A stretch of 64,000 bases of DNA from Burkholderiales bacterium (GTDB lineage: Bacteria > Pseudomonadota > Gammaproteobacteria > Burkholderiales > SG8-41). The position numbers and the translations under genes were made by a program. Shown here piece after piece: positions 14,962-58,829 of the stretch. The notes beneath the pieces were generated by a model. The model was not told the DNA's origin. It did not search any database and saw only the letters and a list, made by a program, of their open reading frames with translations. The DNA lies in assembly GCA_035259205.1 (NCBI GenBank), contig DATFWO010000318.1:7954-71953 (forward strand). The letters run 5' to 3'. Positions within the stretch are counted from its first letter, which is position 1. Each line of letters opens with the position of its first letter.

Positions 14962-15158
14962 GAAATTCGAGGAATTGCCGGGTAGACATTTCGCTGCTGC
15001 AAGACTCAAATCGCACAACGCGTCACGCTTCCGCCCTGTCATAAAGTCGACACGTGCGCTGAATTTCAATCACTGAGACGCACTGGTTTGGATCGGGCAT
15101 TGCCCTTTAACACCATGATTGTATTGAATTATAGGTGTTTACCTCGACGCGTTGCCGG

Positions 15159-15174
15159 TGGCACGCGGTTTGCG
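15159..15174 (+). promoter_or_regulatory. Sigma-54 (-24/-12) promoter in front of the sugar-transferase-prsK-prsR operon
   Basis: TGGCAC-GCGGT-TTGCG is a near-consensus match. The GC of the -12 element is only about 15 nt from the ATG at 15188. Confidence 0.55.
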
Positions 15175-15187
15175 GTGTAGGGCTGTC

Positions 15188-16579
15188 ATGATCCCGATAT
15201 TCAGCCATTACGTTCCCGGCAGACTGATATTTCTCGCCGCTCTGGAGGCGGGAGTACTGTTGCTCGCTGCCTATGTCGGTATTTCCATGCACATGGCCGA
15301 GCCCGGCGTGATCGCCAGTTCCGCGCCCTCGCTGCCGCCGCAGATCGTCGCGTTTGTGTTCGGCATGTTGATCGTCATGTCGAGCATGGGTCTTTACCAG
15401 CCCGATCTGTGGGGCAATACCCAGGCGGTTGGCGTGCGCCTCGTTGCCGCGCTCGTGCTGGGATTTACTGTCATCGGGCTCGTTTCGCATCTGGTTCCGT
15501 CGCTGCACTTCGGTCCGCACGCACTCGGCGGCGCGCTGGTCGTAGCGCTGACCGGAAGCATTGTCGTCCGCGCCGCATTTTTCAAGTGGAGCAACCTGGG
15601 CGTATTCAAATCACGGGTGCTGGTGCTCGGCACGGGCTCGCGCGTGATGAGGCTTGCAGAATTTGCCCAGCACAATCCGAATCACGTCGTGATCGGGTAC
15701 GTCGCTCTCCAGGAGTCCAAGCACTACATTCCGCTGCCTCACGTGTTGCCCATGGAGCCCGGGGAATCGCTGTTGTCCATCGTCAGGAAGTACTCGATCG
15801 ACCAGATCGTCATTGCGGTGCGCGACCGGCGCGGAGGCGGCTTCCCGGTGCAGCCGCTGCTGGAGTGCCGCCTGAACGGCGTCAAGGTCACCGAGCTGCC
15901 GACGTTCTTCGAACGCGAGTACCGTCAGGTGCTGCTCGAGTCGCTCAACCCGAGCTGGATGGTCCTCGGAGAAGGTTTCCGTCAGGGATTTTTCCGCAAT
16001 TCCGTAAAGCGCTTGTTCGATCTGGCCGTGAGCGGTGTGCTGCTCCTGCTGACGCTGCCGATCATGTTCATCACCGCTATCTGTATCGCGCTCGAAAGCG
16101 GACTGCCCGTCCTGTATCGCCAGGACCGCGTCGGCCAGGGTGGCCGCATTTTCACGCTCTACAAGTTCCGCAGCATGAAGAACGATGCGGAGAACGACGG
16201 AACGCCGCGCTGGGCGGCCACCGACGATGACCGTACCACGTACGTGGGGAAGATCATCCGCAAGCTGCGGATCGATGAGCTGCCGCAGATCATCAACGTG
16301 CTGAAGGGCGACATGAGCTTTGTCGGACCGCGCCCGGAACGGCCGTATTTCGTCGACCAGCTCGGGAGGCAGATACCGTACTATGCATTGCGGCACAGCG
16401 TTAAGCCGGGGATCACCGGCTGGGCTCAGGTGCGTTACCCCTATGGCGCGTCAGTTGACGATGCGATCGAAAAACTTCAGTATGATCTGTACTATGTGAA
16501 GAATCACTGCCTCTTCCTCGATCTCATGATCCTGATCGATACCGTGCAAGTCGTATTGTGGGGCAAGGGGGCGAGATAG
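15188..16579 (+). CDS. Undecaprenyl-phosphate sugar phosphotransferase (priming sugar transferase, PEP-CTERM-locus EpsB/WbaP type)
   Basis: N-terminus MIPIFSHYVPGRL followed by TM helices. The C-terminal bacterial sugar transferase domain includes YKFRSM, DELPQIINVLKGDMSFVGPRPERP and GITGWAQV. The ORF-track start at 15152 is a TTG lying inside the promoter. Confidence 0.85.
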   Translation: MIPIFSHYVPGRLIFLAALEAGVLLLAAYVGISMHMAEPGVIASSAPSLPPQIVAFVFGMLIVMSSMGLYQPDLWGNTQAVGVRLVAALVLGFTVIGLVSHLVPSLHFGPHALGGALVVALTGSIVVRAAFFKWSNLGVFKSRVLVLGTGSRVMRLAEFAQHNPNHVVIGYVALQESKHYIPLPHVLPMEPGESLLSIVRKYSIDQIVIAVRDRRGGGFPVQPLLECRLNGVKVTELPTFFEREYRQVLLESLNPSWMVLGEGFRQGFFRNSVKRLFDLAVSGVLLLLTLPIMFITAICIALESGLPVLYRQDRVGQGGRIFTLYKFRSMKNDAENDGTPRWAATDDDRTTYVGKIIRKLRIDELPQIINVLKGDMSFVGPRPERPYFVDQLGRQIPYYALRHSVKPGITGWAQVRYPYGASVDDAIEKLQYDLYYVKNHCLFLDLMILIDTVQVVLWGKGAR

Positions 16580-16617: not shown

Positions 16618-18696
16618 ATGGCACTACCTGTCGGGACCTTGGGGTACGCCGCTGCAGCAGCGGCGTTTCTTTTTCTATCCGTGCTGTTGGTGATGAGCTG
16701 GCGCGGCCGCTTGCCCGGCATTTTGCTGGCCGCGGGCAGTCTCACGACCGTAGCGTGGGCGGGCGCAACAGCGTATCTCATCGCTCGGCCCGACCCCTCT
16801 CTATTCGCCGCCGACCTGCTCGAGGTTCTGCGCACCGCCGCATGGCTCATTTTCCTGATGGTGCTGCTCGGGTACGGCAGCAAGGAGGTCGGGCGCCTGC
16901 GGCTGTTCGCTGTTGCCCTGGTGGTGTTTTGCGGCGTGCTCTTCGCGGCGACGTTCTTTTCGGGCTATACGTTCGCGACCAGGCTGGGCGCCTTCGGCAT
17001 TTTCGGCCGGCTGACTCTGGCGGTGGTCGGCATGATCCTGGTCGAGCAGCTCTACCGCAACGTCAATCCGCAGCAGCGGTGGGGCATCAAGTTCCTGTGC
17101 CTCGGATTCGGCGGAATTTTCGCCTGCGATTTTTATCTTTACGCCGACGCGCAGTTGTTCCGGCGCGTGGACGGCGACATCTGGGCGGCGCGTGGTGTCG
17201 TCAACGCGCTGGTCGTCCCGCTCCTCGCCATCGCGACTGCGCGCAACCCGACGTTGTCGCTGGATGTGACCATTTCGCGTCGAATCGTGTTCCACTCCAC
17301 GGCGATGCTCGGGGCGGCGACGTACCTGCTGTTGATGGCGCTCGCCGGATTCTACATACGCTACTTCGGCGGCAACTGGGGCTCGGTGCTTCAGGTCATC
17401 TTCCTGTTCGGCGCCGTGATGTTGCTCTGCGCAATCCTGTTCTCGGGCACCCTCCGCGCCCGCCTGAAGGTCTTTCTCAGCAAGAACTTTTTCAGCTACC
17501 ACTACGATTACCGCGACGAATGGCTGCGCTTCACGCAAACGTTGTCGGAAGGCGAGCCCGGCACGCAATTGCGCGAGCGCTCCATCCAGGCGATCGCCGG
17601 CCTGGTCGACAGTCCGGGCGGCGCGCTGTGGCTGGCCCAGGAATCGGGGACTTTCGAGCTGAGCGCGCACTGGAACACTCCGAGCGCGAGCGGGACCGAG
17701 CAGGCCGACGGCGCGCTCTGCCAGTTCCTGGAACGGCGCCATTGGGTCATCGACCTCGACGAGTACGTGACGCACCCTGAGCTCTACGAGGGGCTCAAGA
17801 TCCCGGAATCGGTGCGTTTGGTCCCGCTCGCCTGGCTCGTGGTGCCGCTGACGCTTCACGAGCGGCTGGTGGGATTTGTGGTGCTCGTCCGGTCGCAGGG
17901 CCGCGTCAAGCTCAATTGGGAAGTGAACGACCTGCTGAAGACCGCCGGCCGGCAGGCGGCGAGCTACCTCGCACAGCTGGAGGCTGCCAAGGCGTTGCTG
18001 GTGGCGCGGCAGTTCGAATCTTTCAACCGCATGTCCGCATTCGTGGTGCACGACCTCAAGAACCTGGTGGCGCAGCTGTCGCTGCTCCTTTCGAATGCAG
18101 ACCGGCACAAGCACGAGCCCGCATTCCAGCAGGACATGATAGAGACGGTGGCCCATTCGGTCGAAAAGATGAGCCGGCTGTTGTTCCAGTTACGTGGCGG
18201 CTATACTCTGGAAGCTCCGAAGCCGGTCTCGCTCGAGGAGCTGCTGCGGCAGGTAGTCGCTGCACGTTCGGGCCTGAAGCCGGCTCCACGACTCGAGGTG
18301 CGAGACGGCTCGATGAGCGTGGTCGCCCACCGCGCGCGCCTCGAGCGCGTGATCGGCCACCTGGTCCAGAATGCCATTGACGCGACGCCCGCGGAGGGCA
18401 ATGTGGTAGTCCAGCTTTTGCGGCAGAATAGCTCTGCGGTGATCGAAATCGCCGATACCGGATGCGGAATGAGCGAGCAGTTCATCCGCTACCGGCTGTT
18501 CAAGCCGTTCGAGTCGACGAAAGCTGCGGGCATGGGAATCGGCACTTATGAGACGCAGCAGTATGTGAGGGAGCTCGGCGGACGCATCCATGTGGAGAGC
18601 CGGGAGGCGCGGGGAACCACCTTCCGCGTCGACCTCCCGTTACATGCCCATGCGGATGCCGCGGGAGAGGGTGTGGCGGTGGAGGACCAGGCTTGA
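16618..18696 (+). CDS. prsK: PEP-CTERM system sensor histidine kinase
   Basis: About 8 N-terminal TM helices and a GAF-like middle region. H-box FVVHDLKNLVAQL, N-box LVQNAIDAT and G-box IADTGCGM. It lies immediately upstream of, and overlaps, the sigma-54 activator gene. Confidence 0.85.
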   Translation: MALPVGTLGYAAAAAAFLFLSVLLVMSWRGRLPGILLAAGSLTTVAWAGATAYLIARPDPSLFAADLLEVLRTAAWLIFLMVLLGYGSKEVGRLRLFAVALVVFCGVLFAATFFSGYTFATRLGAFGIFGRLTLAVVGMILVEQLYRNVNPQQRWGIKFLCLGFGGIFACDFYLYADAQLFRRVDGDIWAARGVVNALVVPLLAIATARNPTLSLDVTISRRIVFHSTAMLGAATYLLLMALAGFYIRYFGGNWGSVLQVIFLFGAVMLLCAILFSGTLRARLKVFLSKNFFSYHYDYRDEWLRFTQTLSEGEPGTQLRERSIQAIAGLVDSPGGALWLAQESGTFELSAHWNTPSASGTEQADGALCQFLERRHWVIDLDEYVTHPELYEGLKIPESVRLVPLAWLVVPLTLHERLVGFVVLVRSQGRVKLNWEVNDLLKTAGRQAASYLAQLEAAKALLVARQFESFNRMSAFVVHDLKNLVAQLSLLLSNADRHKHEPAFQQDMIETVAHSVEKMSRLLFQLRGGYTLEAPKPVSLEELLRQVVAARSGLKPAPRLEVRDGSMSVVAHRARLERVIGHLVQNAIDATPAEGNVVVQLLRQNSSAVIEIADTGCGMSEQFIRYRLFKPFESTKAAGMGIGTYETQQYVRELGGRIHVESREARGTTFRVDLPLHAHADAAGEGVAVEDQA

Positions 18697-20075
18697 GCAA
18701 AGACGGGAAAATTCTGCTGATCGTCGAGGATGACCCCGGCCTGCAGAAGCAGATGCGCTGGAGCTTCGACGCCCATGAAACGCTCGTTGCGGGTGATCGC
18801 GAGAGTGCACTCGCATTGCTGCGCCGGCACGAGCCTCCGGTCGTTACCCTGGACCTGGGGCTTCCTCCGGACGCCGATGGGGCGTCGGAAGGGCTTGCGA
18901 CCCTGGAACAGATACTGGCCCTCGTGCCGGACACGAAGGTGATCGTGGTAACCGGCAATCAGGATCGCGCCAACGCGGTGAAGGCGGTCGGCATGGGCGC
19001 CTACGATTTCTACCAGAAGCCGTTCGAGCCGGAAGTACTGGGACTCGTCGTCGACCGGGCGTTTCGCCTGCATTCCCTGCAGCAGGAAAACCGCCGGCTG
19101 CAACAGCAGGCGTCGGAATCCGAAACCAAGGGCATCATCACCCGCGATCCGGCGATGCTCAAGGTATGTCGCAGCGTGGAGAAGGTGGCGCCCTCGGACG
19201 CCACGGTTCTGCTGCTGGGCGAGTCCGGCACGGGCAAGGAGTTGCTGGCCAAGGCCCTGCACCAGTCGAGCCCCCGTTCGGCCAAGCGGTTTGTCGCGAT
19301 CAACTGCGCGGCAATTCCGGAAACCCTGCTCGAGTCGGAGCTGTTCGGCTACGAGAAGGGGGCGTTTACCGGCGCGAACAAGCAAACCCGTGGCAAGATC
19401 GAGTTCGCCGATGGTGGTACGTTCTTTCTCGACGAGGTCGGGGATCTCTCGGCCGCATTGCAGGCGAAGTTGCTGCGCTTCCTTCAGGAACGCGTGGTCG
19501 AGCGCGTCGGGGGGCGGGAAGAGATTCCGGTCGATGTGCGCATCGTGTGCGCTACTCATCAGAACCTGAAGCAGCTGATCGCGGACGGCCGGTTCCGGGA
19601 GGATCTCTACTATCGTCTGAGTGAAATCGTGATCGCTATCCCGCCCCTCCGCGAGCGGCCCGGAGACGCGGCGCTGCTCGCGCACGCGTTCATGCATGCG
19701 TTCAGCCGCCAGCAAGGACGCTCCCTGCTCGGTTTCAAGCAGGATGCGCTCGACGCGATCGAGAACTATACCTGGCCGGGCAACGTGCGCGAGCTCGAGA
19801 ATTACATCAAGCGCGCGGTCATCATGGCCGATGGATCCCAGCTCAGTGCCGGTGATCTGGGGCTCGCGGTATCGCCTGGAGAGGCCGAGCCGGTCAACCT
19901 GCGGGAGGTGCGCGACGAGGCGGAACGGAAGGCAATCGTCAGAGTTCTGAGCCGGGTGGACGGCAACGTTGCCGACGCAGCGCAGTTGCTGGGCGTAAGC
20001 CGGCCCACGTTGTACCACTTGATCAATCGCTACGGCCTCAAGCAGCCCGGATCGTTCAAGCCGGAAGAGGCATGA
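18693..20075 (+). CDS. prsR: PEP-CTERM-box response regulator, sigma-54-dependent transcriptional activator
   Basis: Receiver domain (LLIVEDD, TLDLGLPPD), AAA+ domain (GESGTGKE, GAFTGA, the sigma-54 contact loop) and a C-terminal Fis-type HTH (AAQLLGVSRPTLYHLINRYGL). The TTG start overlaps the prsK TGA stop. Confidence 0.85.
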   Translation: MSKDGKILLIVEDDPGLQKQMRWSFDAHETLVAGDRESALALLRRHEPPVVTLDLGLPPDADGASEGLATLEQILALVPDTKVIVVTGNQDRANAVKAVGMGAYDFYQKPFEPEVLGLVVDRAFRLHSLQQENRRLQQQASESETKGIITRDPAMLKVCRSVEKVAPSDATVLLLGESGTGKELLAKALHQSSPRSAKRFVAINCAAIPETLLESELFGYEKGAFTGANKQTRGKIEFADGGTFFLDEVGDLSAALQAKLLRFLQERVVERVGGREEIPVDVRIVCATHQNLKQLIADGRFREDLYYRLSEIVIAIPPLRERPGDAALLAHAFMHAFSRQQGRSLLGFKQDALDAIENYTWPGNVRELENYIKRAVIMADGSQLSAGDLGLAVSPGEAEPVNLREVRDEAERKAIVRVLSRVDGNVADAAQLLGVSRPTLYHLINRYGLKQPGSFKPEEA

Positions 20076-21037: not shown

Positions 21038-21135
21038 TTCGTCGCCCGTTACTATGTAACTACATGTTCTGTAACGAAGTTTATAGATGAGCATCGTCGA
21101 CCTGGAAGCGCCCATCGCGTCCGTGAAGTCCATTT

Positions 21136-21345: not shown

Positions 21346-24147
21346 TCACGGCCCCAAGGACTTCAATAACGCCTGCGCGTCGTCGGAGTGAGGGAATGCC
21401 TTGCCGGCGCCGAGTATGTTCCTCAATTCGGCGCGCGCGCGCGTCTTGTCGCCCGCCTGAACCAGTGCCTGTGCGAGATGATACCGGATTTCCCGGTTCT
21501 CGCCGTCGAGGGCGACTGCCTTGAGGAGCATCTGTATGCCTTCGTGCAGCTTGCCTCGACTCACGAGTATCCACCCAAAGGTGTCGAGGACGGCCGGTTC
21601 GCCGGGGGTGAGCTGGTAGGCGCGCTCCGCGAAATCGAAAGCGGCCCCATCTCCCACGGCGTGCAGCGACCACGCGAGGTTATTGAGCGTGCGGGCATCC
21701 TGAGGCTTGCGTCGGTCCAGTTCCACGTAGTGCGGAATGGCTTCCTTGTAGCGGCCTTTGGCGCTCAACGCCTCCGCCAGGTAGGTACGCGTCGCCACGT
21801 CGTCCGGGTTCTTCTGCACCCATTCTTCGAGGGGTGCCTCTCGCGCCTGATCGGGGCTCGCGACCGACAAGGCTCGATGCACATTGGTCAGCATCTGTCC
21901 GCTGGGCTCCAACTTGGCCGCGGCCTCGAATGCCTTCACGGCGCCGCGCCCTTCGCCTTGTGCCAGCAGGATATCCCCTTCGAGCCTGAAGCCAACAACG
22001 GATTTCGGATTGTCACGCTGGACCTGCCGGGCCAGATCGAGCGCCTCACCATACTTCTTGTTCGAGATCAAAATGTTGGCAAGGAGCGCCTTGGCGTCCT
22101 GACTGCGCGGATTGCGCTTGAGCGCGCCGCGGACCACCTCCGTCGCCGTGCGGGAGTCCCCGTTAGCCATGTTGGCCGAAGCCAGCAGAAGGTAGGCCTC
22201 GACCGAACCGGATTGCACCATGGTCAGCGTGCTGAACGTTGTTATGGCGCCGGAGTAGTCCTTCGCAGCCATCTGAACGGTGCCCAACGTCTTCAGCACC
22301 TTGGGATCGCGCGGCCGCAGCCTCAGCGCCTGCTTCGCCGACTGGACCGACTCCTTGAGTTCACCCGCGCCCACCTGTGCTTCAGCGATCATGAGCAACG
22401 CCGTAATCGATTCCGGATGCGCATCAGCCGCCTGGCGTGCCCATTTAAGGCCCTCGGCGCGCTGGCCCGCCTTGAATTCGAGCTGCGCCATCGACAACAG
22501 TGCTTCGAGGTGCGTCGGATTCTTGTTCAGAACTTCCGAGATCCGTTTTCGGGCTGAATCAGGCTTGCCCTCGTCGAGGTCCATTCCGGCGAGCTCCTGG
22601 ACCGCCGGGAAATAGGCCGTGTTCAGTTGCGTGGCACGTTGAAAGGCGAGGCGCGCACCGGACGCATCACCTGCGGCGCGCATTACTACTCCCTTGAGCA
22701 TATGCGTTTCCGGGTTGGACGGAAGGCGCCGCTCGACGGCAAGGGCGGCTTCGCGCGCCTTCTCGATCCGTTTGTCGGCAACGAGCATCATGATCAGCCC
22801 GTAATCGGCTTTCGTATTCGGGGGATTCATAGCAATTGCCGCGCGGAAATCGGCTTCTGCGCGCTCGCGCATTCCGCTCGCGAGGTGCGTCATCGCCAAC
22901 GCTGTACGGAATTCCACGTCCTGCGGCGCCAGCTTCACCGCCTTGGCGAGCGTCTCGCGCGCCTCCTGGACGTCTCCGAGCTGCAGCATGGCCTGTCCGG
23001 CAAGTCCGAGTAGCTGCGGGTCTTCCACCTCACCCGCGAGTAGCGGCCTCAGGACGTTGAGGGCGGCCTGCCCGTAGTTCTTGGCGAGGAGAGTTGCGGC
23101 CAGCAACTTGCGCGCATTGGTATCCGTTGGATATCTGGTGAGGTAGCGAACCAGGGCTGTCTGAGCCTGCTCCAGCTCGCCCGTCGCGTAGCTGAGCTGT
23201 CCCGAAACGAGCAGCGCTGGCGCGTACTGGGGCAGGACGTCCAGCACTTTTTGCAGGTATTGACTGCATGTCTGGTATCGCTTCTCTTTGCACTCGATGA
23301 GCCCCTGGGCGAAGTTGAGCAGGGGCCCGGCCGGCGCCATCTTGCTGGCTCGCTCCAGAACCGGCCGTGCATCCGCGATGCGATCGGCGCTGACGAGTGC
23401 AATGCCCTGGAGCAGGGCGAGATTTACATTGCTGGGTTCGAGCTTCGCCGCTTCCACATACTCCGGCAGCGCCTGCTCCAGCTCCCCGGCGGTGCGCCGC
23501 AGCTCGGCCAGGGCAAGATGAGCCTCGGCGCTGCGTGGATTCGATGCAAGAACCTCGGCGATCAGGCTTTCGGCCCGTTGCCGCTCGTCTTTCCGTGCCA
23601 GAGCAAGTCGCGCCAATCCGAGTCTGGCCTTGTCAGGCGATGCTCCCATGGCAAGCTGGAACTGGGTGTTGGCGCTCGTGAGATCGCGCTCCGCGAGGTA
23701 GGCAAGGCCGCGCAGCACCGCAAATTCCGCAAGCGTCTTGGCGTCCGTGGGCTGGGGGCGCTTGGGATCCGGCTCGAGGAGCTGGAGCAACTCCTTGGAC
23801 TTGTCGAGGTCGAGCAATACCGGGCCGAGCACGGGTATGACGTCCACCGCCGGCTTTCCGAGATCGATGGCCTGACGGAGGAAGCTTTCCGCCTCCGGCA
23901 ATATGCTCGAATCCGCCAGTATCTTGCCGAGTTGGAAGGCCGCCTCGGCATGTTTTGGGTCGCGTGCCAGAAGCGCCCTGAACGTGATCGCTGCCGAGAT
24001 TCGGTCGCCATTGGCGAGATAGACGCTGCCCTCGCGCTCCAAACTCTCGACGCTATCGCATCCCGGGAGGAGGAGCATCAATACCGCAGCCAGCAGCAGC
24101 GGCTGGCGGGCGACCACCCGCTTACCGGTCGATCGAATCAACATCAT
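21346..24147 (-). CDS. prsT: PEP-CTERM system TPR-repeat lipoprotein (paralog 1 of 4)
   Basis: About 930 aa of tandem TPR repeats. Lipoprotein signal LLLAAVLMLLLPGC. Start chosen at the internal ATG pair (MMLIRS). It lies near prsKR and PEP-CTERM genes. Confidence 0.8.
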   Translation of the reverse strand: MMLIRSTGKRVVARQPLLLAAVLMLLLPGCDSVESLEREGSVYLANGDRISAAITFRALLARDPKHAEAAFQLGKILADSSILPEAESFLRQAIDLGKPAVDVIPVLGPVLLDLDKSKELLQLLEPDPKRPQPTDAKTLAEFAVLRGLAYLAERDLTSANTQFQLAMGASPDKARLGLARLALARKDERQRAESLIAEVLASNPRSAEAHLALAELRRTAGELEQALPEYVEAAKLEPSNVNLALLQGIALVSADRIADARPVLERASKMAPAGPLLNFAQGLIECKEKRYQTCSQYLQKVLDVLPQYAPALLVSGQLSYATGELEQAQTALVRYLTRYPTDTNARKLLAATLLAKNYGQAALNVLRPLLAGEVEDPQLLGLAGQAMLQLGDVQEARETLAKAVKLAPQDVEFRTALAMTHLASGMRERAEADFRAAIAMNPPNTKADYGLIMMLVADKRIEKAREAALAVERRLPSNPETHMLKGVVMRAAGDASGARLAFQRATQLNTAYFPAVQELAGMDLDEGKPDSARKRISEVLNKNPTHLEALLSMAQLEFKAGQRAEGLKWARQAADAHPESITALLMIAEAQVGAGELKESVQSAKQALRLRPRDPKVLKTLGTVQMAAKDYSGAITTFSTLTMVQSGSVEAYLLLASANMANGDSRTATEVVRGALKRNPRSQDAKALLANILISNKKYGEALDLARQVQRDNPKSVVGFRLEGDILLAQGEGRGAVKAFEAAAKLEPSGQMLTNVHRALSVASPDQAREAPLEEWVQKNPDDVATRTYLAEALSAKGRYKEAIPHYVELDRRKPQDARTLNNLAWSLHAVGDGAAFDFAERAYQLTPGEPAVLDTFGWILVSRGKLHEGIQMLLKAVALDGENREIRYHLAQALVQAGDKTRARAELRNILGAGKAFPHSDDAQALLKSLGP

Positions 24148-24270
24148 TTTTTGCGCTTGGTGTGCTGAGCTGGAAAAGACGTGGTGCTGCGCCCCAGGTT
24201 CGCTCCCAATCATGCCATGGATTACCGGGAGGTGCTTAGCCCGCACGATTTACCGAGAGCCTTCCCATGT

Positions 24271-24286
24271 TGGTCCGGAAATTGCT
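24271..24286 (+). promoter_or_regulatory. Sigma-54 (-24/-12) promoter
   Basis: TGGTCC-GGAAA-TTGCT lies 37 nt upstream of the ATG at 24323. Confidence 0.55.
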
Positions 24287-24322
24287 TCTATGCCCCAGAG
24301 GGAATAAATCAAGGGGTCGCAA

Positions 24323-24580
24323 ATGAAGATCCTGTCCGCCGAGAAATCCAAGCTGCTGGCCGAGCAGAATGGCTGGTCGCTGGAATTTGCGCAAGGTTTT
24401 GTCGACGGCGAAACGTCGCGCAGACTCGGCAAGGCGCCTGCGCTGCTTGCGCTGGTCGGAATCGACGAGCGTTCCATGGGCTTTCGGGCCGGATACTTCG
24501 AGCGGGTGAACCTTGAGCCCGCGCGGACTGCGAAATCGGACACGCCCGTCAGGCGTCGTGAGCAGGTTCGGGTCGGCTGA
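24323..24580 (+). CDS. Conserved small cytoplasmic protein (85 aa), paralog of 58858..59088, unknown function
   Basis: RBS aagggg. About 60 percent identity by eye over 61 aa to the second copy (ILSxEKxKxLAExNGWSL, GFVDGE, LVGIDE, GFRAGYFER). No signal peptide or TM helix. Confidence 0.65.
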   Translation: MKILSAEKSKLLAEQNGWSLEFAQGFVDGETSRRLGKAPALLALVGIDERSMGFRAGYFERVNLEPARTAKSDTPVRRREQVRVG

Positions 24581-26442: not shown

Positions 26443-29211
26443 ATGACTATACGGTGCAAGGGCAGGGTGATCGTTGCGCTCCTGGCGAGCGTGCTGGTGA
26501 TCGCCTGCAGCCCGCCAGATACCGACAAAATGATGCTGGAGGCGAAGCAATACCAGCAGAAAGGAGATCTCAAAGCCGCCGTCATCGTGCTGAATAACGT
26601 CCTGCAGCTGAAACCTGAGGAAGGTGAAGCTCGCCTGATAATGGGCACGATCTCCATGCAGAACCGGGACCCGCGCGCAGCCGAGCACCATTTTCGCGCG
26701 GCCCTCGAAGCAAAGGTCGATCCGAAGGTCCTGCTTCCGCTCCTTGCCCAGGCACTGTTCGAACAGGCTGAATTTCAAAAGCTTCTGGATGCCACGCGGG
26801 CGAGCGATTACGGCGACGCGGCGCAGCAGCCGGAGATACTCAGTTTTCGGGGCCACTCGCAGCTTTCCCTCGGACGCCTCGAAGAAGCGGCCGCATCGTT
26901 CCAGGAAGCACTGAAGCGCAGACCCGAATATGCTCCGGCGCTGCTGGGAGAGGCACGCCTCGCCTTGCTCAAGAGGGATGTCCCCGCCACCGTAACCTTG
27001 GTCGATCGCGCGCTCGCCGCTGACCCCTCCAACATCGACGCCTGGTTGATCAAGGGCGACCTCGACCGGGCCGCAGGTAATTTCCGCGCAGCCCTTGCCG
27101 ATTACGAGAAGGGGCTCGCCCTCAGCCCCAAAAGTCTCGCCGCCAACCTCAATCTGGCCTCGTTGCACATGCAACAGGGGGAGCTCGAGCTCGCGCGCAA
27201 GCACGTTCGCTCCGTGCTGGAGACGGCGCCCGACAGCCCGATCGGCTATTACCTGCTCGGATTGCTGGAATTCCAGAGCAAGAATTTTGCCGCCGCCAAC
27301 GATGCGATCCAGCAGGTTCTGAAGGCCGCGCCCAGCTACCTCCCCGCGACCGCACTGGCTGGAGTAGTCGCCTACACGGTAGGCGCGAACGAGCAGGCAG
27401 AGCAGCGCTTGGGCGATGCAGTGGCTAGGTATCCGACCAGCGTCTCCCTGAGGAAGTTGTTTGCTGCGGCCCTGTTGAGGAGCGGCAAGGCGAGGCGCGC
27501 GATCGACGTGCTGGAGCCCGCGCTCAAGGCCGCGCCGAGCGATACGGGCCTGCTGGTCTTGTTCGCCGAGGCCAAGTCGCTCAATGGTGAAGCTCCGGTT
27601 GCGCGGAAGTACTTTGAACTGGCCGCCAAGTACTACCCGCAGAGTCCCGGCGTGCGCGCCGGCCTCGGGATGACGCGGCTTGCGACCGGGGAGATTGACA
27701 AGGCGTTGGCCGATCTGGAGGCGGCGGTCGAGCTTGGCAGCGGTGTCGCGGAGATTTCCCTGGTGAAGGCGCTCGTGTCGATGAAGCGCTACGACAAGGC
27801 GCTCGAGGCCGTAGCTCGACTGGAAAAGAAGCGGCCCGAGGATCCAGTAACGTTCAATCTCAAGGGAGCGGTGCTGTTCGCGAAAGGCGATACGGCAGGG
27901 GCGCGCAAGGCATTCGAGCAGGCTGTAGCGCTGCAGCCATCGAAGTTTGCCGCGGCCAGGAATCTTGCGCAGCTCGACGTGCGCGAAAACAATCCGGCCG
28001 CAGCGCGCATACGTTTCGAGAAGATCCTCGAGCGCGACGCGGAGAACGTGCCCGCTATGCTCGCGCTCGCCGAACTCACAGCTGCGGCCGGCAACAGCGC
28101 AGAGGCGCTATCGTGGGTGAAGCGGGCAAGGGATGCGCAGCCAAAATCCTACGCGCCTTCCATGGCACTCGCGCATCTGTACTTCGCCGCGGGGGACTAC
28201 GCCAGCGCCATCGCCGCGGTGCGCGATGCGGTGGCCGCCGACCCCGACAGCGCCGATGCTCTCAACCTGCTGGCTTATTCACAGCTGCGGCTCGGCCAGC
28301 GAACGCAGGCTCTGGCCACTTATTCGGTGCTCGTCAGCCGCTATCCGAAATCGGCGGAAGCGCACTACGGGTTGAGCGGGGCGCTGTCCGCGGATGGCCA
28401 GTACAGAGCCGCGGAACGCAGCCTCAAGACGGCGCTGCAACTGAGGCCGGGCTTTCCCGAGGCGATGTATGCCCTCGCCGCATTGCAACTGCGGATGGGA
28501 AAGACCGCGGAAGCAGGAAAGCTCGTGGGCGATGCGCAAAAATGGCTGCCGCAGACATCCCTGGCGTCCGTCATTGCCGGCGACACGGCCATGGCGGAGA
28601 AGCGTTACGACCGCGCCGTACAGGCGTATGGGGTGGCCTTCGCTGCGGAGAAATCCCGCGAAATGCTGCTGAGACTCCATGGCGCGTTGCTCGGCGCCGG
28701 TAAGACCGCCGCCGCAGAAGCGCTGACCACGGAATGGCTGAAGAAGAATCCGGACGACGTTCAGGTGCGCTATCTGGTGGCCGACACGGCAATCCGCAAT
28801 CAAAACTTCCGCCTTGCAGCGGAGCAATACGAGTACGTGCTGAAGATCGAGGGCACCAAGCTGCCCCTGCTGCACAACCTCGGAATGGTCTACGAGCGGA
28901 TGAATGATCCACGCGCGCTGGAGCTCGCCGAGACGGCATACAAGATAGCGCCCGAGCAGCCGGGTGTCCTGTTCAACCTGGGCCGACTTGTGCTGCAAAA
29001 GGGGGATGCCGAGCGCGCGGTCAAGCTGCTGGAGAAGGCGCGGACCATGTCGCCTGACTCCCAGCTGGTCCGTTACGATCTCGCCAAGGCCTACATCAAA
29101 GTGGGCTCCAACGACCTTGCGCGGATTGAACTGCAGCAATTGCTCCGCAGCCGCCAGGAATTTCCCGAACGCGCCGAAGCCGAAGACCTGCTGCGGAAAC
29201 TCAAGAATTGA
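26443..29211 (+). CDS. PrsT-like TPR-repeat lipoprotein (paralog 2 of 4)
   Basis: 922 aa of TPR repeats. Lipobox VLVIAC. Collinear by eye with the other three paralogs. Confidence 0.8.
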   Translation: MTIRCKGRVIVALLASVLVIACSPPDTDKMMLEAKQYQQKGDLKAAVIVLNNVLQLKPEEGEARLIMGTISMQNRDPRAAEHHFRAALEAKVDPKVLLPLLAQALFEQAEFQKLLDATRASDYGDAAQQPEILSFRGHSQLSLGRLEEAAASFQEALKRRPEYAPALLGEARLALLKRDVPATVTLVDRALAADPSNIDAWLIKGDLDRAAGNFRAALADYEKGLALSPKSLAANLNLASLHMQQGELELARKHVRSVLETAPDSPIGYYLLGLLEFQSKNFAAANDAIQQVLKAAPSYLPATALAGVVAYTVGANEQAEQRLGDAVARYPTSVSLRKLFAAALLRSGKARRAIDVLEPALKAAPSDTGLLVLFAEAKSLNGEAPVARKYFELAAKYYPQSPGVRAGLGMTRLATGEIDKALADLEAAVELGSGVAEISLVKALVSMKRYDKALEAVARLEKKRPEDPVTFNLKGAVLFAKGDTAGARKAFEQAVALQPSKFAAARNLAQLDVRENNPAAARIRFEKILERDAENVPAMLALAELTAAAGNSAEALSWVKRARDAQPKSYAPSMALAHLYFAAGDYASAIAAVRDAVAADPDSADALNLLAYSQLRLGQRTQALATYSVLVSRYPKSAEAHYGLSGALSADGQYRAAERSLKTALQLRPGFPEAMYALAALQLRMGKTAEAGKLVGDAQKWLPQTSLASVIAGDTAMAEKRYDRAVQAYGVAFAAEKSREMLLRLHGALLGAGKTAAAEALTTEWLKKNPDDVQVRYLVADTAIRNQNFRLAAEQYEYVLKIEGTKLPLLHNLGMVYERMNDPRALELAETAYKIAPEQPGVLFNLGRLVLQKGDAERAVKLLEKARTMSPDSQLVRYDLAKAYIKVGSNDLARIELQQLLRSRQEFPERAEAEDLLRKLKN

Positions 29212-29313
29212 CTCCGGCCGATGCAAGCTCTCGTCCCCGGAAAGAGATAGGATTACACTGAACGTACGGGCCTTGACCGGGCGACCATTTCACGCGCGCA
29301 AGAGGTGAATCCC

Positions 29314-32109
29314 ATGGTCGACTTGCAACTTACGCGAGGGTATGCAACGCGCGTCGCGCTGTTGCTGATGATCGTGCTGTGCATCGGCAGCTGTGGCAAG
29401 AAGATGCCCAGCGTCGAAGACGCGATGGCCAGCGCCAAGCAGGAGCGCGCGAAGGGTAACAATGCGGCGGCCATCGTCCATCTCAAGAACGTGATCCAGA
29501 GAGCCCCCGACAACGCGGAGGCGCGCTATCTTCTGGGACTGGGCTACGTCGACACCGGCGACTTCGCTTCGGCGGAAAAGGAGCTGCGCCAGGCGCTCGA
29601 ACTGCGCTACGACGCGGCGCAGATCGTTGCGCCGCTCGGTAAGTCGCTGCTGGCGCAGGGCGAATTTCAGAAAGTCCTCAACGATATCCGCGTCGACGCT
29701 GCAACCGGCAACGCAGCGCAGGCGGAGATCCTCTCGCTGCGGGGACTCGCTGCGCTCGGTGCGGGGCGCACCCGCGACGCCCGCGAAGCGTTCGAGCAGG
29801 CGCTCGCCAAGCAGCCGGAATTCGCCGATGCATTGCTCGGCCAGGCGCGGCTCGCCGCCGGTGAGCGCAAACTCGACGAAGCCGCGGCTCTGATCGAGCG
29901 CGCCATCGCCAGCGCTCCGAACAGCGTCGACGCATGGCTCATGAAGGGGGATCTGCAGCGGATTCTGAAGCAGGAAGGCGCGGTCGCCTCCTACCAGAAA
30001 GTACTCGAGCTCAAGCCGGATAACGTCCCCGCCCGACTGAACGTGGTTTCAATGGAGATCGCCGCCGGGAATTTCGACGCCGCCAACAAGCAGCTCGAGC
30101 AGGTGCGCCAGGTCGCTCCAAAGAGCCCGATGGTCAAGTACATGGAGGCGCTCATCGAGTTCCGGAAGGGCAACTACGCCGCCGCGCGCGATGCCGTGCT
30201 GCAGGTCCTCAAGGTCGCGCCCAACCATCTGCCCAGCGTGCTGCTGGCGGGCGCAATCGAGTATGCGCTGGGGTCGCATTCCCAGGCGCAATCGTACCTC
30301 GCGCGCGTGGTCGAACGGGCGCCGGGCAACCTCTATGCGCGCAAGCTCCTGATCGCGTCGCTCGCAAGAAGCGGCAACATGCAGCGGGCTCAGGAAGTGC
30401 TCGAGCCCGGATTGAGACAGTCGCCTAACGATGCGGGGTTGCTGGCGCTCGCCGGAGAGGTGGCAATGCAGGCCAATGATTTCGCCCGGGCGAGAGAGTA
30501 CTTCGACAAGGCCGCCAAGCTCGATCCCAAGAGCGCCGGCGCCCGCACCGGGCTTGCCGTGAGCCGTCTCGCTTCCGGCGAGGCGGACCGCGCGCTGGCC
30601 GACCTCGAGGCGGCGGTGCAGCTCGATTCCGACAAGTACCAGGCGGACATATTGCTCGTGACGTCGCATCTGCAACGCGGCGAGTTCGACCAGGCGCTCA
30701 AGGCGCTGCAAAGCTTGGAAAAGAAGCAGCCCGACAATCCGCTCACCTACAATCTGAAAGCCGCCGCGTACCTTGGCAAGAAAGACAGCCTGAACGCGCG
30801 CAAGAACCTGGAGCGGGCGCTCGAGCTTCGGCCCACCTACCTGCCCGCGGCATTGAACCTCGCACAACTCGACTTGCAGGACAAGAATCCCCAGGCCGCC
30901 CGCCGCCGGGTCGAGGCGATCGTCGAGAAAGACCCGAACCACGTGCAGGCTTTGCTTGCGCTCGCGAATCTCGGGCCGCGGCTTGGGGCGACGGTAAAGG
31001 AGCAGGTCGAGTGGCTGGAGCGCGCCCAGCGGGCGAGTCCCGCAACGCCTCAGCCGCAGCTCATGCTGGCGCGTCTCTACATCCAGACCGGCGAGCCGAA
31101 AAAAGCGCTCGAGCTGGCGCAGAAGGCGCAAGCAGCGAACCCGAACAGCATCGAAGTGCTCGATGCCCTCGGCGCCATCCAGATCGCGGCAGGCGAGAGG
31201 AACCAGGCCCTTGCGACCTACGGCAAGCTGGCGACCTTGCAACCCAAGTCGGCGGTCGCCCAGTACCGTCTCGCTACCGCGCAGTCCATCAACGGCGACA
31301 CCACGGGGGCTGCGAATTCGCTGCACAAGGCGCTCGCGCTGCAGCCCGACTTCGTGGATGCGCAGGCGGCGCTCGCCGAGCTGGAGCTGCGCGCCGGCCG
31401 CTCGGCGGAAGCGCTCAAGATCGCACGGCAGCTGCAGAAGCAGGCCACCTCTTCCGCCGTGGGCTACACCCTCGAAGGCGATGCCCTGATGGCGGAAAAG
31501 AAGTTCCTCCCGGCGGCGAAGTCGTACGAAACGGCCTACGGCATGGACAAGAACGGCGTGCTCGCGGCGAAAATGCACGCGGCATACCTGCAGGGCGGGA
31601 AGCCCGATGAGGCGGAAGCGCGGCTGGCGCAATGGCTGAAAGCCTCACCCGAAGACAGCGCCGCGCGGCTGTACTCCGCGGATGCCAGCCTCAGGACCGG
31701 CAAGTACAAGAGCGCGATCGAGCAGTACGAATGGCTGCAGCAGAAGCAGCCCGACAATATCATCGTGCTGAACAACCTCGCCTGGGTGTACCAGCAGGTG
31801 AAGGATCCGCGGGCGCTGGCGACCGCCGAGCGGGCGTACAAGCTCAAGCCCGACAACCCCGCCGTCGCCGACACCCTCGGCTGGATGCTGGTGGAGCAGG
31901 GCAACACCGCGCGTGGCGTCGAGCTGCTGCGGAAAGCGGTGGTGGCGGCGCCCCAGTCGCCCACCATCCGTTACCATCTCGCTCAGGCATGGCTGAAGTC
32001 CGGCGACAAGGCGAAAGCCCGCGACGAGCTGGAGGGGTTGCTGTCCACCGGCACGAAGTTCCCGGAGCAAAACGAAGCGCAGAACCTGCTGAAAGAATTG
32101 CGCAGGTAG
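29314..32109 (+). CDS. PrsT-like TPR-repeat lipoprotein (paralog 3 of 4)
   Basis: TPR repeats throughout. Lipobox CIGSC. The ATG at 29314 lies 8 nt after the aagagg RBS, whereas the ORF track begins at a GTG at 29305. It is the closest paralog of 55899..58685 (shared blocks NAEARYLLG, EQALAKQPEFADALL, SAPxxVDAWLMKGDL). Confidence 0.8.
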   Translation: MVDLQLTRGYATRVALLLMIVLCIGSCGKKMPSVEDAMASAKQERAKGNNAAAIVHLKNVIQRAPDNAEARYLLGLGYVDTGDFASAEKELRQALELRYDAAQIVAPLGKSLLAQGEFQKVLNDIRVDAATGNAAQAEILSLRGLAALGAGRTRDAREAFEQALAKQPEFADALLGQARLAAGERKLDEAAALIERAIASAPNSVDAWLMKGDLQRILKQEGAVASYQKVLELKPDNVPARLNVVSMEIAAGNFDAANKQLEQVRQVAPKSPMVKYMEALIEFRKGNYAAARDAVLQVLKVAPNHLPSVLLAGAIEYALGSHSQAQSYLARVVERAPGNLYARKLLIASLARSGNMQRAQEVLEPGLRQSPNDAGLLALAGEVAMQANDFARAREYFDKAAKLDPKSAGARTGLAVSRLASGEADRALADLEAAVQLDSDKYQADILLVTSHLQRGEFDQALKALQSLEKKQPDNPLTYNLKAAAYLGKKDSLNARKNLERALELRPTYLPAALNLAQLDLQDKNPQAARRRVEAIVEKDPNHVQALLALANLGPRLGATVKEQVEWLERAQRASPATPQPQLMLARLYIQTGEPKKALELAQKAQAANPNSIEVLDALGAIQIAAGERNQALATYGKLATLQPKSAVAQYRLATAQSINGDTTGAANSLHKALALQPDFVDAQAALAELELRAGRSAEALKIARQLQKQATSSAVGYTLEGDALMAEKKFLPAAKSYETAYGMDKNGVLAAKMHAAYLQGGKPDEAEARLAQWLKASPEDSAARLYSADASLRTGKYKSAIEQYEWLQQKQPDNIIVLNNLAWVYQQVKDPRALATAERAYKLKPDNPAVADTLGWMLVEQGNTARGVELLRKAVVAAPQSPTIRYHLAQAWLKSGDKAKARDELEGLLSTGTKFPEQNEAQNLLKELRR

Positions 32110-37231: not shown

Positions 37232-37282
37232 ATCCGCTCTGTGAAAGGGTGTCTGCACCCGCACATTTGAGGAGGGACTTGC

Positions 37283-55898: not shown

Positions 55899-58685
55899 TC
55901 ACCGGCTGAGTTCCGCCAACAATTCTCTTGCTTCCTTGGCGAACCTTGAATCTGGGGAATTGGCCAGCAATTTCTCCAGTTCCTGTCGCGCTTTAGTACG
56001 ATCCCCCGTTTTGACGAGCGCCCGTGCCAGGTGGTACCGAGGTTCGGTAGCCTTGGGCATGTCGGTCACCGCCTTCTGCAGCAGCTCGAGCCCACGTTCG
56101 GCGTTGCCCCGCTCGACCAGCATCCAGCCGAGTGTGTCGGCGGCCGCCGCGTTGGGACTGAGCTTATAGGCGCGCTCCGCCGTCTCCAATGCGCGGGAAT
56201 CCTTGACGCCGTGATAGGCCACGGCGAGGTTGTTGAGCAGCTGCGCGTCGTCAGGCTGTTTTTTCAGCAACCACTCGTAGTCTTCGATTGCCTCCTTATA
56301 CATGCCGCTCTTGAGGTGATTGTCCGCGCGGTAACGCCGCACCATTGCGTCGTCCGGCGATTCCTTCAGCCACTGCGCCAGGCGCCCCTCAGCTTCCTCC
56401 GGCTTCCCGGCCCGCGTTAACGCCGCGTGCAGCTTGATCAGGACGGTGCCGCTCTTGCCCATGCCGTAGGCGACTTCGTACGCCTTGACGGCTTGCGGAA
56501 ATTTCCTCTCCGCCATCAGGACGTCGCCTTCGAGGACAAAGCCTGCGGGAGACTTGGCGGACCGCTTTTGCACCTGCTGCGCGATCTTCATCGCCTCCGA
56601 ATAACGCTTCGCGCGCAACTCGAACGCGGCGAGCGCCATTTGAGCGTCAGTGAAATCGGGCTGCAACGAAACCGCTTTGCGCAGCGCGTTCGTCGCTCTC
56701 GTCCGGTCGCCACTGACTGCGTATGCCTTAGCGAGTTGCATGAGGGCGGCCGCAGATTTGGGCTGGAGCGCGACGAGCTTCTCGTAGGTACTCACCGCCT
56801 GTTCATTCGCGCCGGCGCCGATCTGGGTGGCGCCCAATGTATGCAGCACTTCCGGATCATCCGGGCGCGCGGTCCGTGCCTGTTGTGCGACCTCCAGCGC
56901 TTTTTTCCAATCTTCGGACTTCGCGTAGGCGCGCGCCAGCATCAACTGCGGTTGCACCGAATTGGGACTCGCTTTGCGGGCGCGCTCCAACCAGTCGATC
57001 TGCTCTTTCGGCGTGGCGCCGATGCGCGCGGCGAAATTGCTGAGCGCCAGCAGAGCCTGCGTATTGTCCTTGTCCCTTTCGAGAATGGCCTCGAGGCGGC
57101 GACGCGCGCTCGCCGGCTGCTTATCCTCGAGGTCGAGTTGTGCGAGGTTAGTCGCCGCCGGCACGAAGGTCGGCTGCAGCTGGAGCGCGCGCTCGAAGGC
57201 CTTGCGCGCAGCCGCTCCTTCATTCTTGTTCCTATAGATCAAACCCTTCAGATTGTAGGTCAGCGGATTATTCGGCTGCTTCTTCTCGAAGGATTGCATC
57301 GCCTGCAGCGCCTGGTCGTAATTCGCCTGCTGCAGGAGCAACAGAACGAGCAGAAAGTCCGCGCGGTATGAGTTGGGGTCCACCGCCACCGCAGACTCTA
57401 GATCCGCCAGCGCGCGATCCGTTTCGCCGGCAGCCAATCGGCTTGCTCCCAGGCCGATGCGCGCCTCCGCGCTCTTGGGATCGAGCTTCGCCGCCTTCTC
57501 GAAATACTGGATCGCGATGGCGAACTCGTTGCTTCGCAGGTATACCTCGCCGGCGAGCGCCATCAGCGCTCCGTCTTCCGGCGCCTGCCGGAGGCTGGGC
57601 TGCAACACGTCGATGGCGCGCTGCGTCTGGCCGGCTTCCGCCAGCGACGCAATCAGCAGCTTCCGCGCATAGAGAAAGCCGGGCGCGCGTTCGACGACCT
57701 GTCCAAGGTGCGCCTGCGCTTGGGCGTGCGTTCCCAGGGCATACTCGGCCGCGCCCGCCAGCAATACGCTCGGCAGATAATCTGGCGCCACCTTGAGCAC
57801 TTCCAGCGCCGCGTCGTGCGCAACGGTGTACTTTTTCTGCTGAAACTCGATCAACGCAAGCAAGTGTTTCCTCTGTAGGAGGTTGGGAGCGAGCTTGCGC
57901 ACCTCTTCTAGTTGCTTGCGCGCCTCATCGAAGTTGCTGGCGGTGATGTGCTGCCACGCCATGTTGACGCGAGCTTGGACATCTTCCGGGCTGATCTCGA
58001 GGACCTTCTGGTAGGCCGCCATGGCGCCTGCCTGATCGGCCCTGAACCGGGCAAGATCGCCTTTCATCAGCCATGCATCTACGTTCTTCGGCGCGCTGGC
58101 GAGCGCCCGCTCGATCAATTTCGACGCTTCATCCGGTTTGTTCTGGATTGCCGCAAGGCGCGCCTGCGCGAGCAGCGCATCGGCGAACTCCGGCTGCTTG
58201 GCGAGCGCCTGCTCGAGCAGCTCGCGTCCTTCCGGGATGCGGTTGAGTCCGAACGACGCCATCGCCCGCAGTGTCAGGATTTCGGCTTGCACCGCGTCGC
58301 CGGCATTGGTGTCCGGAGGCACCTGGTCGAGCACCTTCTGGAATTCGCCCATCATCAGCAGCGACTTGCCGATCTTTACCTTGGCCAGGTCGTAACGCAG
58401 GTCCAGGGCCTTGCGCAGCTCTATTTCGGCCGATTTGAAATCACCCACGTCGTTGTAGGTCACGCCCAGGAGGTAACGCGCTTCGGCGTTCTGCGGAGAC
58501 TTCTGCAGCAGGCTCTTCAGGTGGACGATCGCGCTCCTATAGTGACCTTTGTCGCGCTCCTGCCTGGCGTCCGCAAGAATTTGCTCGGGGTTCGCGCTCT
58601 GCTCCTTGCAACCTGAGGAAAGCAGCAGGAGCGAGAGCACCACTGCGCACGCTGCGAAGCCGCGCATGTTTCTGGTTCTGATCAT
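55899..58685 (-). CDS. PrsT-like TPR-repeat lipoprotein (paralog 4 of 4)
   Basis: 928 aa of TPR repeats. Lipobox LLLSSGC. Highly similar to 29314..32109. Confidence 0.8.
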   Translation of the reverse strand: MIRTRNMRGFAACAVVLSLLLLSSGCKEQSANPEQILADARQERDKGHYRSAIVHLKSLLQKSPQNAEARYLLGVTYNDVGDFKSAEIELRKALDLRYDLAKVKIGKSLLMMGEFQKVLDQVPPDTNAGDAVQAEILTLRAMASFGLNRIPEGRELLEQALAKQPEFADALLAQARLAAIQNKPDEASKLIERALASAPKNVDAWLMKGDLARFRADQAGAMAAYQKVLEISPEDVQARVNMAWQHITASNFDEARKQLEEVRKLAPNLLQRKHLLALIEFQQKKYTVAHDAALEVLKVAPDYLPSVLLAGAAEYALGTHAQAQAHLGQVVERAPGFLYARKLLIASLAEAGQTQRAIDVLQPSLRQAPEDGALMALAGEVYLRSNEFAIAIQYFEKAAKLDPKSAEARIGLGASRLAAGETDRALADLESAVAVDPNSYRADFLLVLLLLQQANYDQALQAMQSFEKKQPNNPLTYNLKGLIYRNKNEGAAARKAFERALQLQPTFVPAATNLAQLDLEDKQPASARRRLEAILERDKDNTQALLALSNFAARIGATPKEQIDWLERARKASPNSVQPQLMLARAYAKSEDWKKALEVAQQARTARPDDPEVLHTLGATQIGAGANEQAVSTYEKLVALQPKSAAALMQLAKAYAVSGDRTRATNALRKAVSLQPDFTDAQMALAAFELRAKRYSEAMKIAQQVQKRSAKSPAGFVLEGDVLMAERKFPQAVKAYEVAYGMGKSGTVLIKLHAALTRAGKPEEAEGRLAQWLKESPDDAMVRRYRADNHLKSGMYKEAIEDYEWLLKKQPDDAQLLNNLAVAYHGVKDSRALETAERAYKLSPNAAAADTLGWMLVERGNAERGLELLQKAVTDMPKATEPRYHLARALVKTGDRTKARQELEKLLANSPDSRFAKEARELLAELSR

Positions 58686-58813
58686 GGAACGAAATACCCC
58701 CCCTCTTAGGACGGCGATTTTGCTCCGGCAGCGGTTTGCCGGACCAGGAATTTTCGCATTTTCTTGTTGCCCGGGAATACTACCTGATTCCGTGAATTTG
58801 TTCCGGCCCGGCT

Positions 58814-58829
58814 TGGCGCGCTAATTGCT
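58814..58829 (+). promoter_or_regulatory. Sigma-54 (-24/-12) promoter
   Basis: TGGCGC-GCTAA-TTGCT lies 29 nt upstream of the GTG at 58858. Confidence 0.55.

Follow-up and report, generated by a model that had tools for sequence, protein, structure and literature searches.

In environmental and activated-sludge bacteria, the formation of floc and biofilm matrix is governed by the PEP-CTERM/exosortase system, to which PrsK, PrsR and PrsT belong, and sigma-54 promoters are known to require an enhancer-binding protein. PrsR was assigned as the enhancer-binding protein of this system by phylogenetic profile, and a cis-element of two parts was reported upstream of PEP-CTERM genes and of 'a few other genes': motif 2 represents the -24 (GG) and -12 (GC) elements of a sigma-54 promoter, and motif 1 consists of 17 nucleotides (nt) ending in TTTACA and situated 32-92 nt upstream (Haft et al. 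2006, PMC1569441). According to the same survey, further regulatory proteins of the system remained to be found. For a PEP-CTERM gene of Aquincola, RpoN dependence with a mapped -24/-12 start site has been established experimentally (PMC9850573). The stretch of DNA analysed here (hereafter the window) comprises 64,000 nt of contig DATFWO010000318.1 of a Burkholderiales bacterium (GCA_035259205.1, positions 7,954 to 71,953; G+C content 63%) and carries two copies, A and B, of a gene for a small protein. In comparison with the described system, these genes occupy the same neighbourhood, beside prsR, prsT and epsB2, and use the same -24/-12 promoter class as the genes of PEP-CTERM proteins. They differ from it in that no described component corresponds to the small protein, for which there is no TIGRFAM/NCBIfam model, and in that motif 1 is not clearly present at most small-gene promoters.

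Copy A (24323..24580, + strand) encodes a protein of 85 amino acids consisting of a conserved helical core of 61 residues and a basic tail; its ATG at 24323 is the sole start codon after the preceding stop. Copy B (58858..59088, + strand) was called mechanically as an open reading frame (ORF) beginning with TTG at 58825. Since this TTG falls within the -12 promoter element and orthologues (loci L009 and L015) carry an ATG at the codon aligned with GTG 58858, the latter is taken as the start, giving 76 amino acids. An earlier note on this DNA had described the two ORFs as paralogues of about 60% identity by eye; alignment gives 69% (42/61 residues, no gaps, BLASTP E 8e-29), somewhat more than that estimate. 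Beyond residue 61 the two tails are unrelated to each other. Both copies are matched by the profile hidden Markov model of the family (E 1e-34 for A and 2e-39 for B), with which a third paralogue was sought in the window and not found, so that exactly two copies are present. The proportions of nonsynonymous and synonymous differences between A and B (pN 0.22, pS 0.51) point to an old duplication. Purine-rich ribosome-binding sites lie between the sigma-54 element and the start codon in both copies; for copy A, a Shine-Dalgarno-like AAGGGG is read from the sequence at 24311..24316 (+), 6 nt before the ATG.

Measured over the 61-codon core against orthologues on other contigs, the ratios of nonsynonymous to synonymous substitution rates (dN/dS) were 0.06-0.26 for copy A and 0.02-0.10 for copy B, at synonymous divergences (dS) of about 1 or saturated. 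Across 101 copies, departures from the consensus are 2.2 times as frequent at third codon positions as at the first and second. G+C at third positions (GC3) is 0.74. Shine-Dalgarno-like sequences are conserved, the A and B subtypes each recur in several metagenome-assembled genomes (MAGs), and in three MAGs two copies lie 29-41 kb apart on one contig, as they do in the window. By these measures of substitution, both ORFs are real genes under purifying selection on their amino-acid sequence. The earlier note had allowed that the similarity might reflect duplicated non-coding DNA, to which duplicated promoter or leader DNA and a conserved non-coding RNA may be added. The shortness of the ORFs is the point in favour of such an origin. 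It is opposed by the strong selection on amino acids at saturated synonymous sites, by residues invariant across hundreds of clusters, by a confidently modelled core (see below) and by a Rfam search of the whole window that returned no RNA family. Its probability is negligible, and the dN/dS values (0.02-0.26 overall), which speak for coding, rule it out for practical purposes.

The family to which the two proteins belong is large and without annotation. Clustered at 90% identity, the family comprised 94 clusters in a word-seeded search and at least 423 in a profile search; an exhaustive HMMER scan of 1.84 billion representatives gave 269 clusters (50% identity) at E<=1e-3, of which 156 at E<=1e-10. 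Every member is named 'hypothetical protein' at its source and none carries a Pfam domain. Neither Pfam nor NCBIfam contains a family matching copy A or B at E<=1, in agreement with the earlier note, which had not recognised the family. Curated profiles run against 135 family members produced only scattered matches, all with E>0.002, the PHROGs search gave no match, and no mention of the family was found in the library of papers searched. Near-invariant or invariant core residues are N16, G17, W18, S19, L20, A23, G25, G29, E30, R33, R34 and G36, followed by G46, D48, Y50, G53, F54, R55, A56, G57, Y58, F59, E60 and R61. The tail after the core varies; its median length is 24 residues and its net charge +3. 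The protein is about 9 kDa with an isoelectric point (pI) of 10.0-10.5 and, as had been noted, neither a signal peptide nor a transmembrane segment was detected in it (maximum Kyte-Doolittle value over 19 residues, 0.67).

AlphaFold2 prediction with 135 sequences reached a predicted local distance difference test (pLDDT) score of ~90 over residues 11-60, with four predicted helices (2-16, 20-35, 41-45 and 49-58) and a disordered tail; a motif G-[FY]-x-[DA]-G is located on helix 2 and again on helix 4. A hairpin predicted in an earlier run with 32 sequences (pLDDT 58) was gone with the deeper alignment. Judged by E<=0.001 or TM>0.5 over the core, Foldseek detected no significant match to this model in the PDB (best E 2.4, TMq 0.36) or BFVD (best E 0.79, TMq 0.40), and a sequence-profile search of the PDB gave chance motif matches only (best E 0.21). 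The sole domain fusion observed in the family is found in P0151 and P0164, two divergent cluster representatives that were obtained from the representative search without a locus, in which the domain is fused to a C-terminal C4 zinc ribbon (CPxC...RRYQC(x4)CxWxG). A free-standing homologue of this ribbon was sought near any small gene and none was found. Several long 'homologues' are accounted for by gene callers that at times translate the promoter in frame: the peptide WPDNC is the translation of TGGCCCGATAATTGC, which identifies the N-terminally extended P0095, P0098 and the extended ORF over the copy of locus L017 as promoter read-through, not fusions.

Both small genes are preceded by sigma-54 (-24/-12) promoters of the form GG-N10-GC. 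That of copy A, TGGTCCGGAAATTGCT (24271..24286, +), ends 37 nt before the start codon, and relatives have the same element at this distance; that of copy B, TGGCGCGCTAATTGCT (58814..58829, +), ends 29 nt before it. The earlier note had placed such promoters 29-37 nt upstream of each start, and this held for both. The pattern TGGYN7TTGCW occurs nine times in the window against 1.5 expected, a count reached in 0/100 shuffles. Among the relatives, TGG[CT]N7TTGC was found within 95 nt upstream of 62/122 family copies, against 1.5% when 95-nt windows were drawn at random from these loci. The family promoters have the consensus TGGCCCGGAAATTGC, which ends 29-42 nt (mostly 35-37 nt) before the start codon. 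The presence of the motif depends on context. It precedes all copies that follow another copy (17/17) or diverge from PrsT (13/13) and nine of ten that follow PrsR, so that 39/40 copies adjoining one of these three possess it; of those directly behind epsB2 (median gap ~111 nt), only one of 32 does. Unless it lies directly behind epsB2, a copy almost always has a sigma-54 promoter of its own, set at a constant spacing from the start codon. Given these counts, genomes with the order epsB2-small-small probably have one copy co-transcribed with epsB2 and one that is sigma-54-dependent. Two tandem copies, 250-550 bp apart behind epsB2, were seen in thirteen loci (L006, L045, L048, L049, L051, L057, L064, L065, L068, L073, L086, L090 and L094), and in every one of these a separate sigma-54 promoter precedes the second copy.

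Elements further upstream are less uniform. Four other sigma-54 sites of the window have a GGAAATTTTTACA-type (TTTACA-type) element 60-95 nt upstream. For copy B, a candidate enhancer resembling a PrsR site, GGAATTTTCGCA (58747..58758, +), lies 55 nt upstream of the -24 element and is similar to the GGAAATTTTTACA-type motif and to motif 1 of Haft et al. (2006, PMC1569441); for copy A the nearest likeness to motif 1 is a weak TTTTTTGCGC 114 nt upstream. Over 52 non-redundant family promoters, TTCCGTG is present in 11 (0.67 expected) at about -27 from TGG, TTCCGTGA in 11 at ~25 nt upstream and TTGCACA in six at ~59 nt upstream. A conserved element, CCGTGA-(A/T-rich)-TCC (58790..58804, +), closely precedes the -24 box of copy B, and a similar one, GCACGATTTACCG, lies at 24243-24255 before copy A. 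Many PrsT-divergent copies (in the window, L009, L015, L018 and L022) share the arrangement CGTGA-(4-6 A/T-rich)-T(A/T)CC(G), 10-35 nt upstream of the -24 box. This could be a site for IHF or a regulator, or part of the divergent prsT promoter.

The genomic context of the family was compared in 27 loci from GTDB species genomes, 80 metagenome loci and several long contigs with precomputed Pfam annotation; window and reference proteins were mapped by tblastn on 110 non-redundant loci. The GTDB loci derive in 25/27 cases from MAGs labelled Burkholderiales, Betaproteobacteria, Gammaproteobacteria or Nitrosomonadales, the others being labelled uncultured Streptomycetaceae (L015) and Enterobacteriaceae (L026). 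Of 129 copies, 24 had no upstream flank; for the remaining 105 the immediate upstream neighbour was EpsB2 on the same strand (32 copies), another family copy (17), a divergent PrsT (13), PrsR on the same strand (10), other mapped genes (5) or unrelated or unknown sequence (28). Downstream, eight copies are followed by a co-directional PrsT and six by polysaccharide export genes. The simplest of the recurrent layouts runs epsB2-prsK-prsR-small-prsT, with all genes on one strand (L001, L003, L004, L034, L039 and L076). Where prsKR is lacking at the site, the order is epsB2-small(-small)-Poly_export-Wzz/GNVR-ParA-type kinase-BBP2_2 barrel-AAA_16 ATPase (L008, L031, L033 and L095). The family occupies the position epsB2-(prsK-prsR)-small-(prsT or export genes), where these gene groups join. 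Among the 69 loci whose flank extends to 2 kb or more, 45 contain a Prs or XrtA-exopolysaccharide (EPS) gene, which bears out the PEP-CTERM setting proposed in the earlier note. The small gene is an accessory one, carried by uncultured Betaproteobacteria of soil and sediment (Burkholderiales sensu GTDB) in their XrtA/PEP-CTERM exopolysaccharide locus.

Within the window, the described system is represented by an EpsB2-type XrtA/PEP-CTERM priming glycosyltransferase (15152..16579, +; TIGR03013, 543 bits), the histidine kinase PrsK (16618..18696, +; TIGR02916, 876 bits) and the sigma-54-dependent response regulator PrsR (18693..20075, +; TIGR02915, 750 bits), the last being the presumed activator of the small-gene promoters. 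PrsT was identified by a full-length match to the TIGR02917 equivalog above its curated cut-off of 312 bits together with a lipoprotein signal. Four paralogues exceed this cut-off and have Cys-containing lipoboxes at their N-termini: PrsT1, a tetratricopeptide repeat (TPR) lipoprotein (21346..24147, -; 677 bits), PrsT2 (26443..29211, +; 724 bits), PrsT3 (29305..32109, +; 919 bits) and PrsT4 (55899..58685, -; 863 bits). PrsT1 and PrsT4 are the divergent neighbours of copies A and B (lipoboxes LLLPGC and LLSSGC), at gaps of 175 bp, measured to the probable and lipobox-compatible PrsT1 start at 24147, and 172 bp, very near the ~175 bp given in the earlier note for each PrsT-like lipoprotein gene. 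One 64-kb window thus holds four full-length paralogues, 31-59% identical with PrsT3 and PrsT4 the closest pair (59%); in the survey of Haft et al. (2006, PMC1569441), the table rows quoted give each genome a single PrsT locus.

Copies A and B had been interpreted as parts of a duplicated two-gene module in which the small protein is dedicated to PrsT. The paralogy of the small genes stands, and homologues do lie beside PrsT genes in other genomes (the 13 divergent and 8 co-directional copies mentioned above). The module as such does not follow. PrsT1 is 31-35% identical to the other three paralogues, and at 35% PrsT1/PrsT4 is the least similar pairing bar one, compared with the 59% of PrsT3/PrsT4, which argues against a straightforward module duplicate. 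In relatives (L001-L004, L034 and L039), PrsT3 follows the small gene co-directionally, and in L002 the order prsR-PEP(-)-PrsT1(-)-small-PrsT3 is that of the window minus the insertion of PEP and PrsT2. By this synteny, copy A is the small gene of the order prsR-small-prsT3, ahead of which PrsT1 and a PEP-CTERM-like gene have been inserted, and its old partner is PrsT3. Around copy B, the order w52296-PrsT4(-)-small B-efflux genes recurs in L009, L018, L113 and L114. If a unit of small gene and PrsT was ever duplicated, it would have been small A with PrsT3 and small B with PrsT4, with a change of orientation, and not the pair named in the earlier note. Nor is the pairing with PrsT a dedicated one, as divergent PrsT accounts for 13 of the 105 upstream neighbours, against 32 for EpsB2, 17 for another copy, 10 for PrsR and 33 for all others. 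The linkage is to the XrtA/PEP-CTERM locus as a whole, not to PrsT specifically.

The explanation tentatively favoured here, at a little short of an even chance, is that the small protein is a sigma-54-controlled cytoplasmic regulatory adaptor of the XrtA/PEP-CTERM system and not a partner of exported PrsT. Through sigma-54 RNA polymerase, the two-component system PrsK/PrsR would switch on the sigma-54-driven small genes together with the PEP-CTERM genes, and the small protein would then act in the cytoplasm as a regulatory adaptor. Its likeliest role may be that of a feedback modulator of PrsR/sigma-54 output or of the transcription of adjacent EPS or prsT genes. A regulatory role is favoured over an enzymatic or structural one because the protein is small and basic with a disordered basic tail, because its gene adjoins prsR, and because paralogues stand under different promoters (31/32 epsB2-linked copies without a sigma-54 site, 17/17 second copies in tandem with one). 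The existence of orphan copies outside EPS loci and the fusion in P0151 and P0164 of a C4 zinc ribbon weakly like those of IS1595 and Ogr/Delta point in the same direction. Small negative regulators within sigma-54 regulons are known to bind their own enhancer-binding protein, as with PspA-PspF and HrpV-HrpS. Like these, the family studied here is a small cytoplasmic protein whose gene adjoins, and is probably activated by, a sigma-54-dependent activator, an arrangement that would suit feedback; it has no sequence or fold similarity to them, and the likeness is by analogy.

Several results weigh against this explanation. Dependence on PrsR is suggested by location and by the general need of sigma-54 for an enhancer-binding protein, but no common activator site was found: a search of the 52 promoters for an enhancer shared by all sigma-54-driven copies returned subset motifs only, and no word of the TTTACA type (motif 1) was enriched among them. 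Profile and structure searches detected no similarity to a DNA-binding, RNA-binding or anti-activator family. The gene most often found beside it, epsB2, codes for an enzyme and not for a regulator. Of the flanked copies, roughly one in four adjoins unrelated genes, such as phaC upstream or a divergently transcribed type I secretion ABC/outer-membrane pair. The zinc ribbon, with the spacing CPxC...C(x4)C at the C-terminus of P0151 and P0164 only, scores 16.7 and 14.3 bits, short of the Pfam cut-offs of 25-26 for the Ogr/Delta and IS1595-type ribbons, and the window copies are without it. A bolder form of the proposal, which is rather unlikely, is that the family forms a new class of small sigma-54 transcription modulators, made from PrsR-activated promoters and binding PrsR or the sigma-54 holoenzyme, with the fused zinc ribbon helping binding in some relatives. 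Constitutive (epsB2-linked) and inducible (sigma-54) paralogues would then set a threshold, and a feedback loop would close that times the production of PEP-CTERM proteins and exopolysaccharide, and hence floc and biofilm formation.

The principal rival places the small protein in EPS assembly as a cofactor that would bind EpsB2 at its cytoplasmic domain, or bind the Wzc-like tyrosine kinase and chain-length machinery, and tune polymer initiation; sigma-54-driven extra copies would raise the dose while PEP-CTERM proteins are made. It draws on the frequency of EpsB2 as co-directional upstream neighbour (32/105), on the median gap of ~111 nt and the absence of a sigma-54 site in 31/32 of these cases, which suggest co-transcription with epsB2, and on the export, chain-length, kinase, barrel and ATPase genes (Poly_export, Wzz/GNVR, ParA-type, BBP2_2 and AAA_16) that follow. 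Where prsK-prsR has been inserted after epsB2, however, the small gene remains behind prsR with its own promoter (the six loci L001, L003, L004, L034, L039 and L076), copies of type B are far from EPS enzymes, beside PrsT4 and efflux genes, and orphan copies occur outside EPS loci altogether; the zinc-ribbon fusions also point rather to nucleic acid or RNA polymerase. Such a cofactor is rather unlikely. The partnership with PrsT suggested in the earlier note, for example as a chaperone of cytoplasmic pre-PrsT inherited within a duplicated two-gene module, is improbable. The 13 divergent and 8 downstream PrsT genes, and the syntenic linkage of PrsT3 and PrsT4 (59% identical) to copies A and B respectively, agree with it, but most copies have no PrsT neighbour, the window holds four PrsT genes for two small genes, and the two divergent PrsT paralogues are only 35% identical. 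Moreover, PrsT is an extracytoplasmic lipoprotein and the small protein has no export signal, which makes direct partnership with mature PrsT topologically unlikely.

A distant relationship or analogy to ribosome modulation factor (RMF, PF04957), under which the protein would bind the 30S subunit and slow translation during floc or biofilm formation, was suggested by similar size and charge (both proteins are small, basic and helical) and by a helix motif in common (G-[FY]-x-A-G...R). One of the 135 members touches Pfam RMF at E 0.029, which is chance level for 135 queries, and a phage 'RMF' stands at rank 11 of the BFVD Foldseek list (E 3.0), although none of the RMF chains in the PDB library was among the Foldseek matches. 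The small family differs from RMF by an extra N-terminal helix and a second copy of the motif, and in genomic context and promoter type. Comparison by hhalign of the family with a purpose-built alignment of 33 RMF sequences gave a probability of 1.1% (E 0.047, 17 columns), with 0.4% for alignment A1 (16-17 columns) and 0.5% for a single RMF sequence; homology to RMF is not supported by this, and the proposal as a whole is very improbable.

Elsewhere in the window, three genes encode PEP-CTERM-like C-termini (20169-21038, -; 25122-26219; 42425-43411, -). Two of these have the same sigma-54 motif class in front, at 21037(-) and 43489(-), with a GGAAATTTTTACA-like element 60-95 nt further upstream, and these two promoters match motifs 2 and 1 of Haft et al. 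(2006, PMC1569441). The longest ORF of the gene at 20169-21038(-) overlaps its own sigma-54 promoter (21022-21037); the real start is probably the ATG at 20954 (MVRILVFLAAIFG...), ~70 nt downstream of that promoter. A PEP-CTERM/exosortase system-associated acyltransferase (35691-36428, -; TIGR03694, 225 bits) adjoins an unannotated gene of 294 amino acids (36470-37354, -), and the pair is conserved downstream of PrsT in L001. Directly after PrsT3 lies a 990-amino-acid fused MFS/spermidine-synthase-like protein (32117-35089, -; NF037959, 74.7 bits against a cut-off of 40). The gene at 52296-55769 (+) encodes a protein of 1157 amino acids with a ~700-residue repeat rich in Ala, Glu, Arg and Lys, ahead of a hydrophobic segment and a domain at the C-terminus. 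No NCBIfam model matches this protein, which is conserved beside PrsT4-type genes in L009, L018, L113, L114 and L004. A further sigma-54 site (7990-8005) with a TTTACA-type upstream motif stands ahead of a lytic-transglycosylase-like gene (8041-8949, +), a homologue of which has small-family copies on both sides in L026 and lies ~4.4 kb upstream of a copy in L019. Another site, TGGCGCGAAACTTGCT (103-118, +), has GGAAATTTTTACA ~85 nt upstream, and the next long ORF begins at 970.

The surrounding PrsK/PrsR/PrsT-XrtA system is a known one, and the accessory small-protein family within it has gone unrecognised and is probably regulatory. So far the family is seen only in uncultured Betaproteobacteria and MAGs labelled Gammaproteobacteria, and its function is proposed from genomic context; it is well defined and could be given a family model of its own. 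As a conserved, unannotated family that sits within PEP-CTERM loci and uses the system's own type of promoter, it is a concrete candidate for a missing component of the system.

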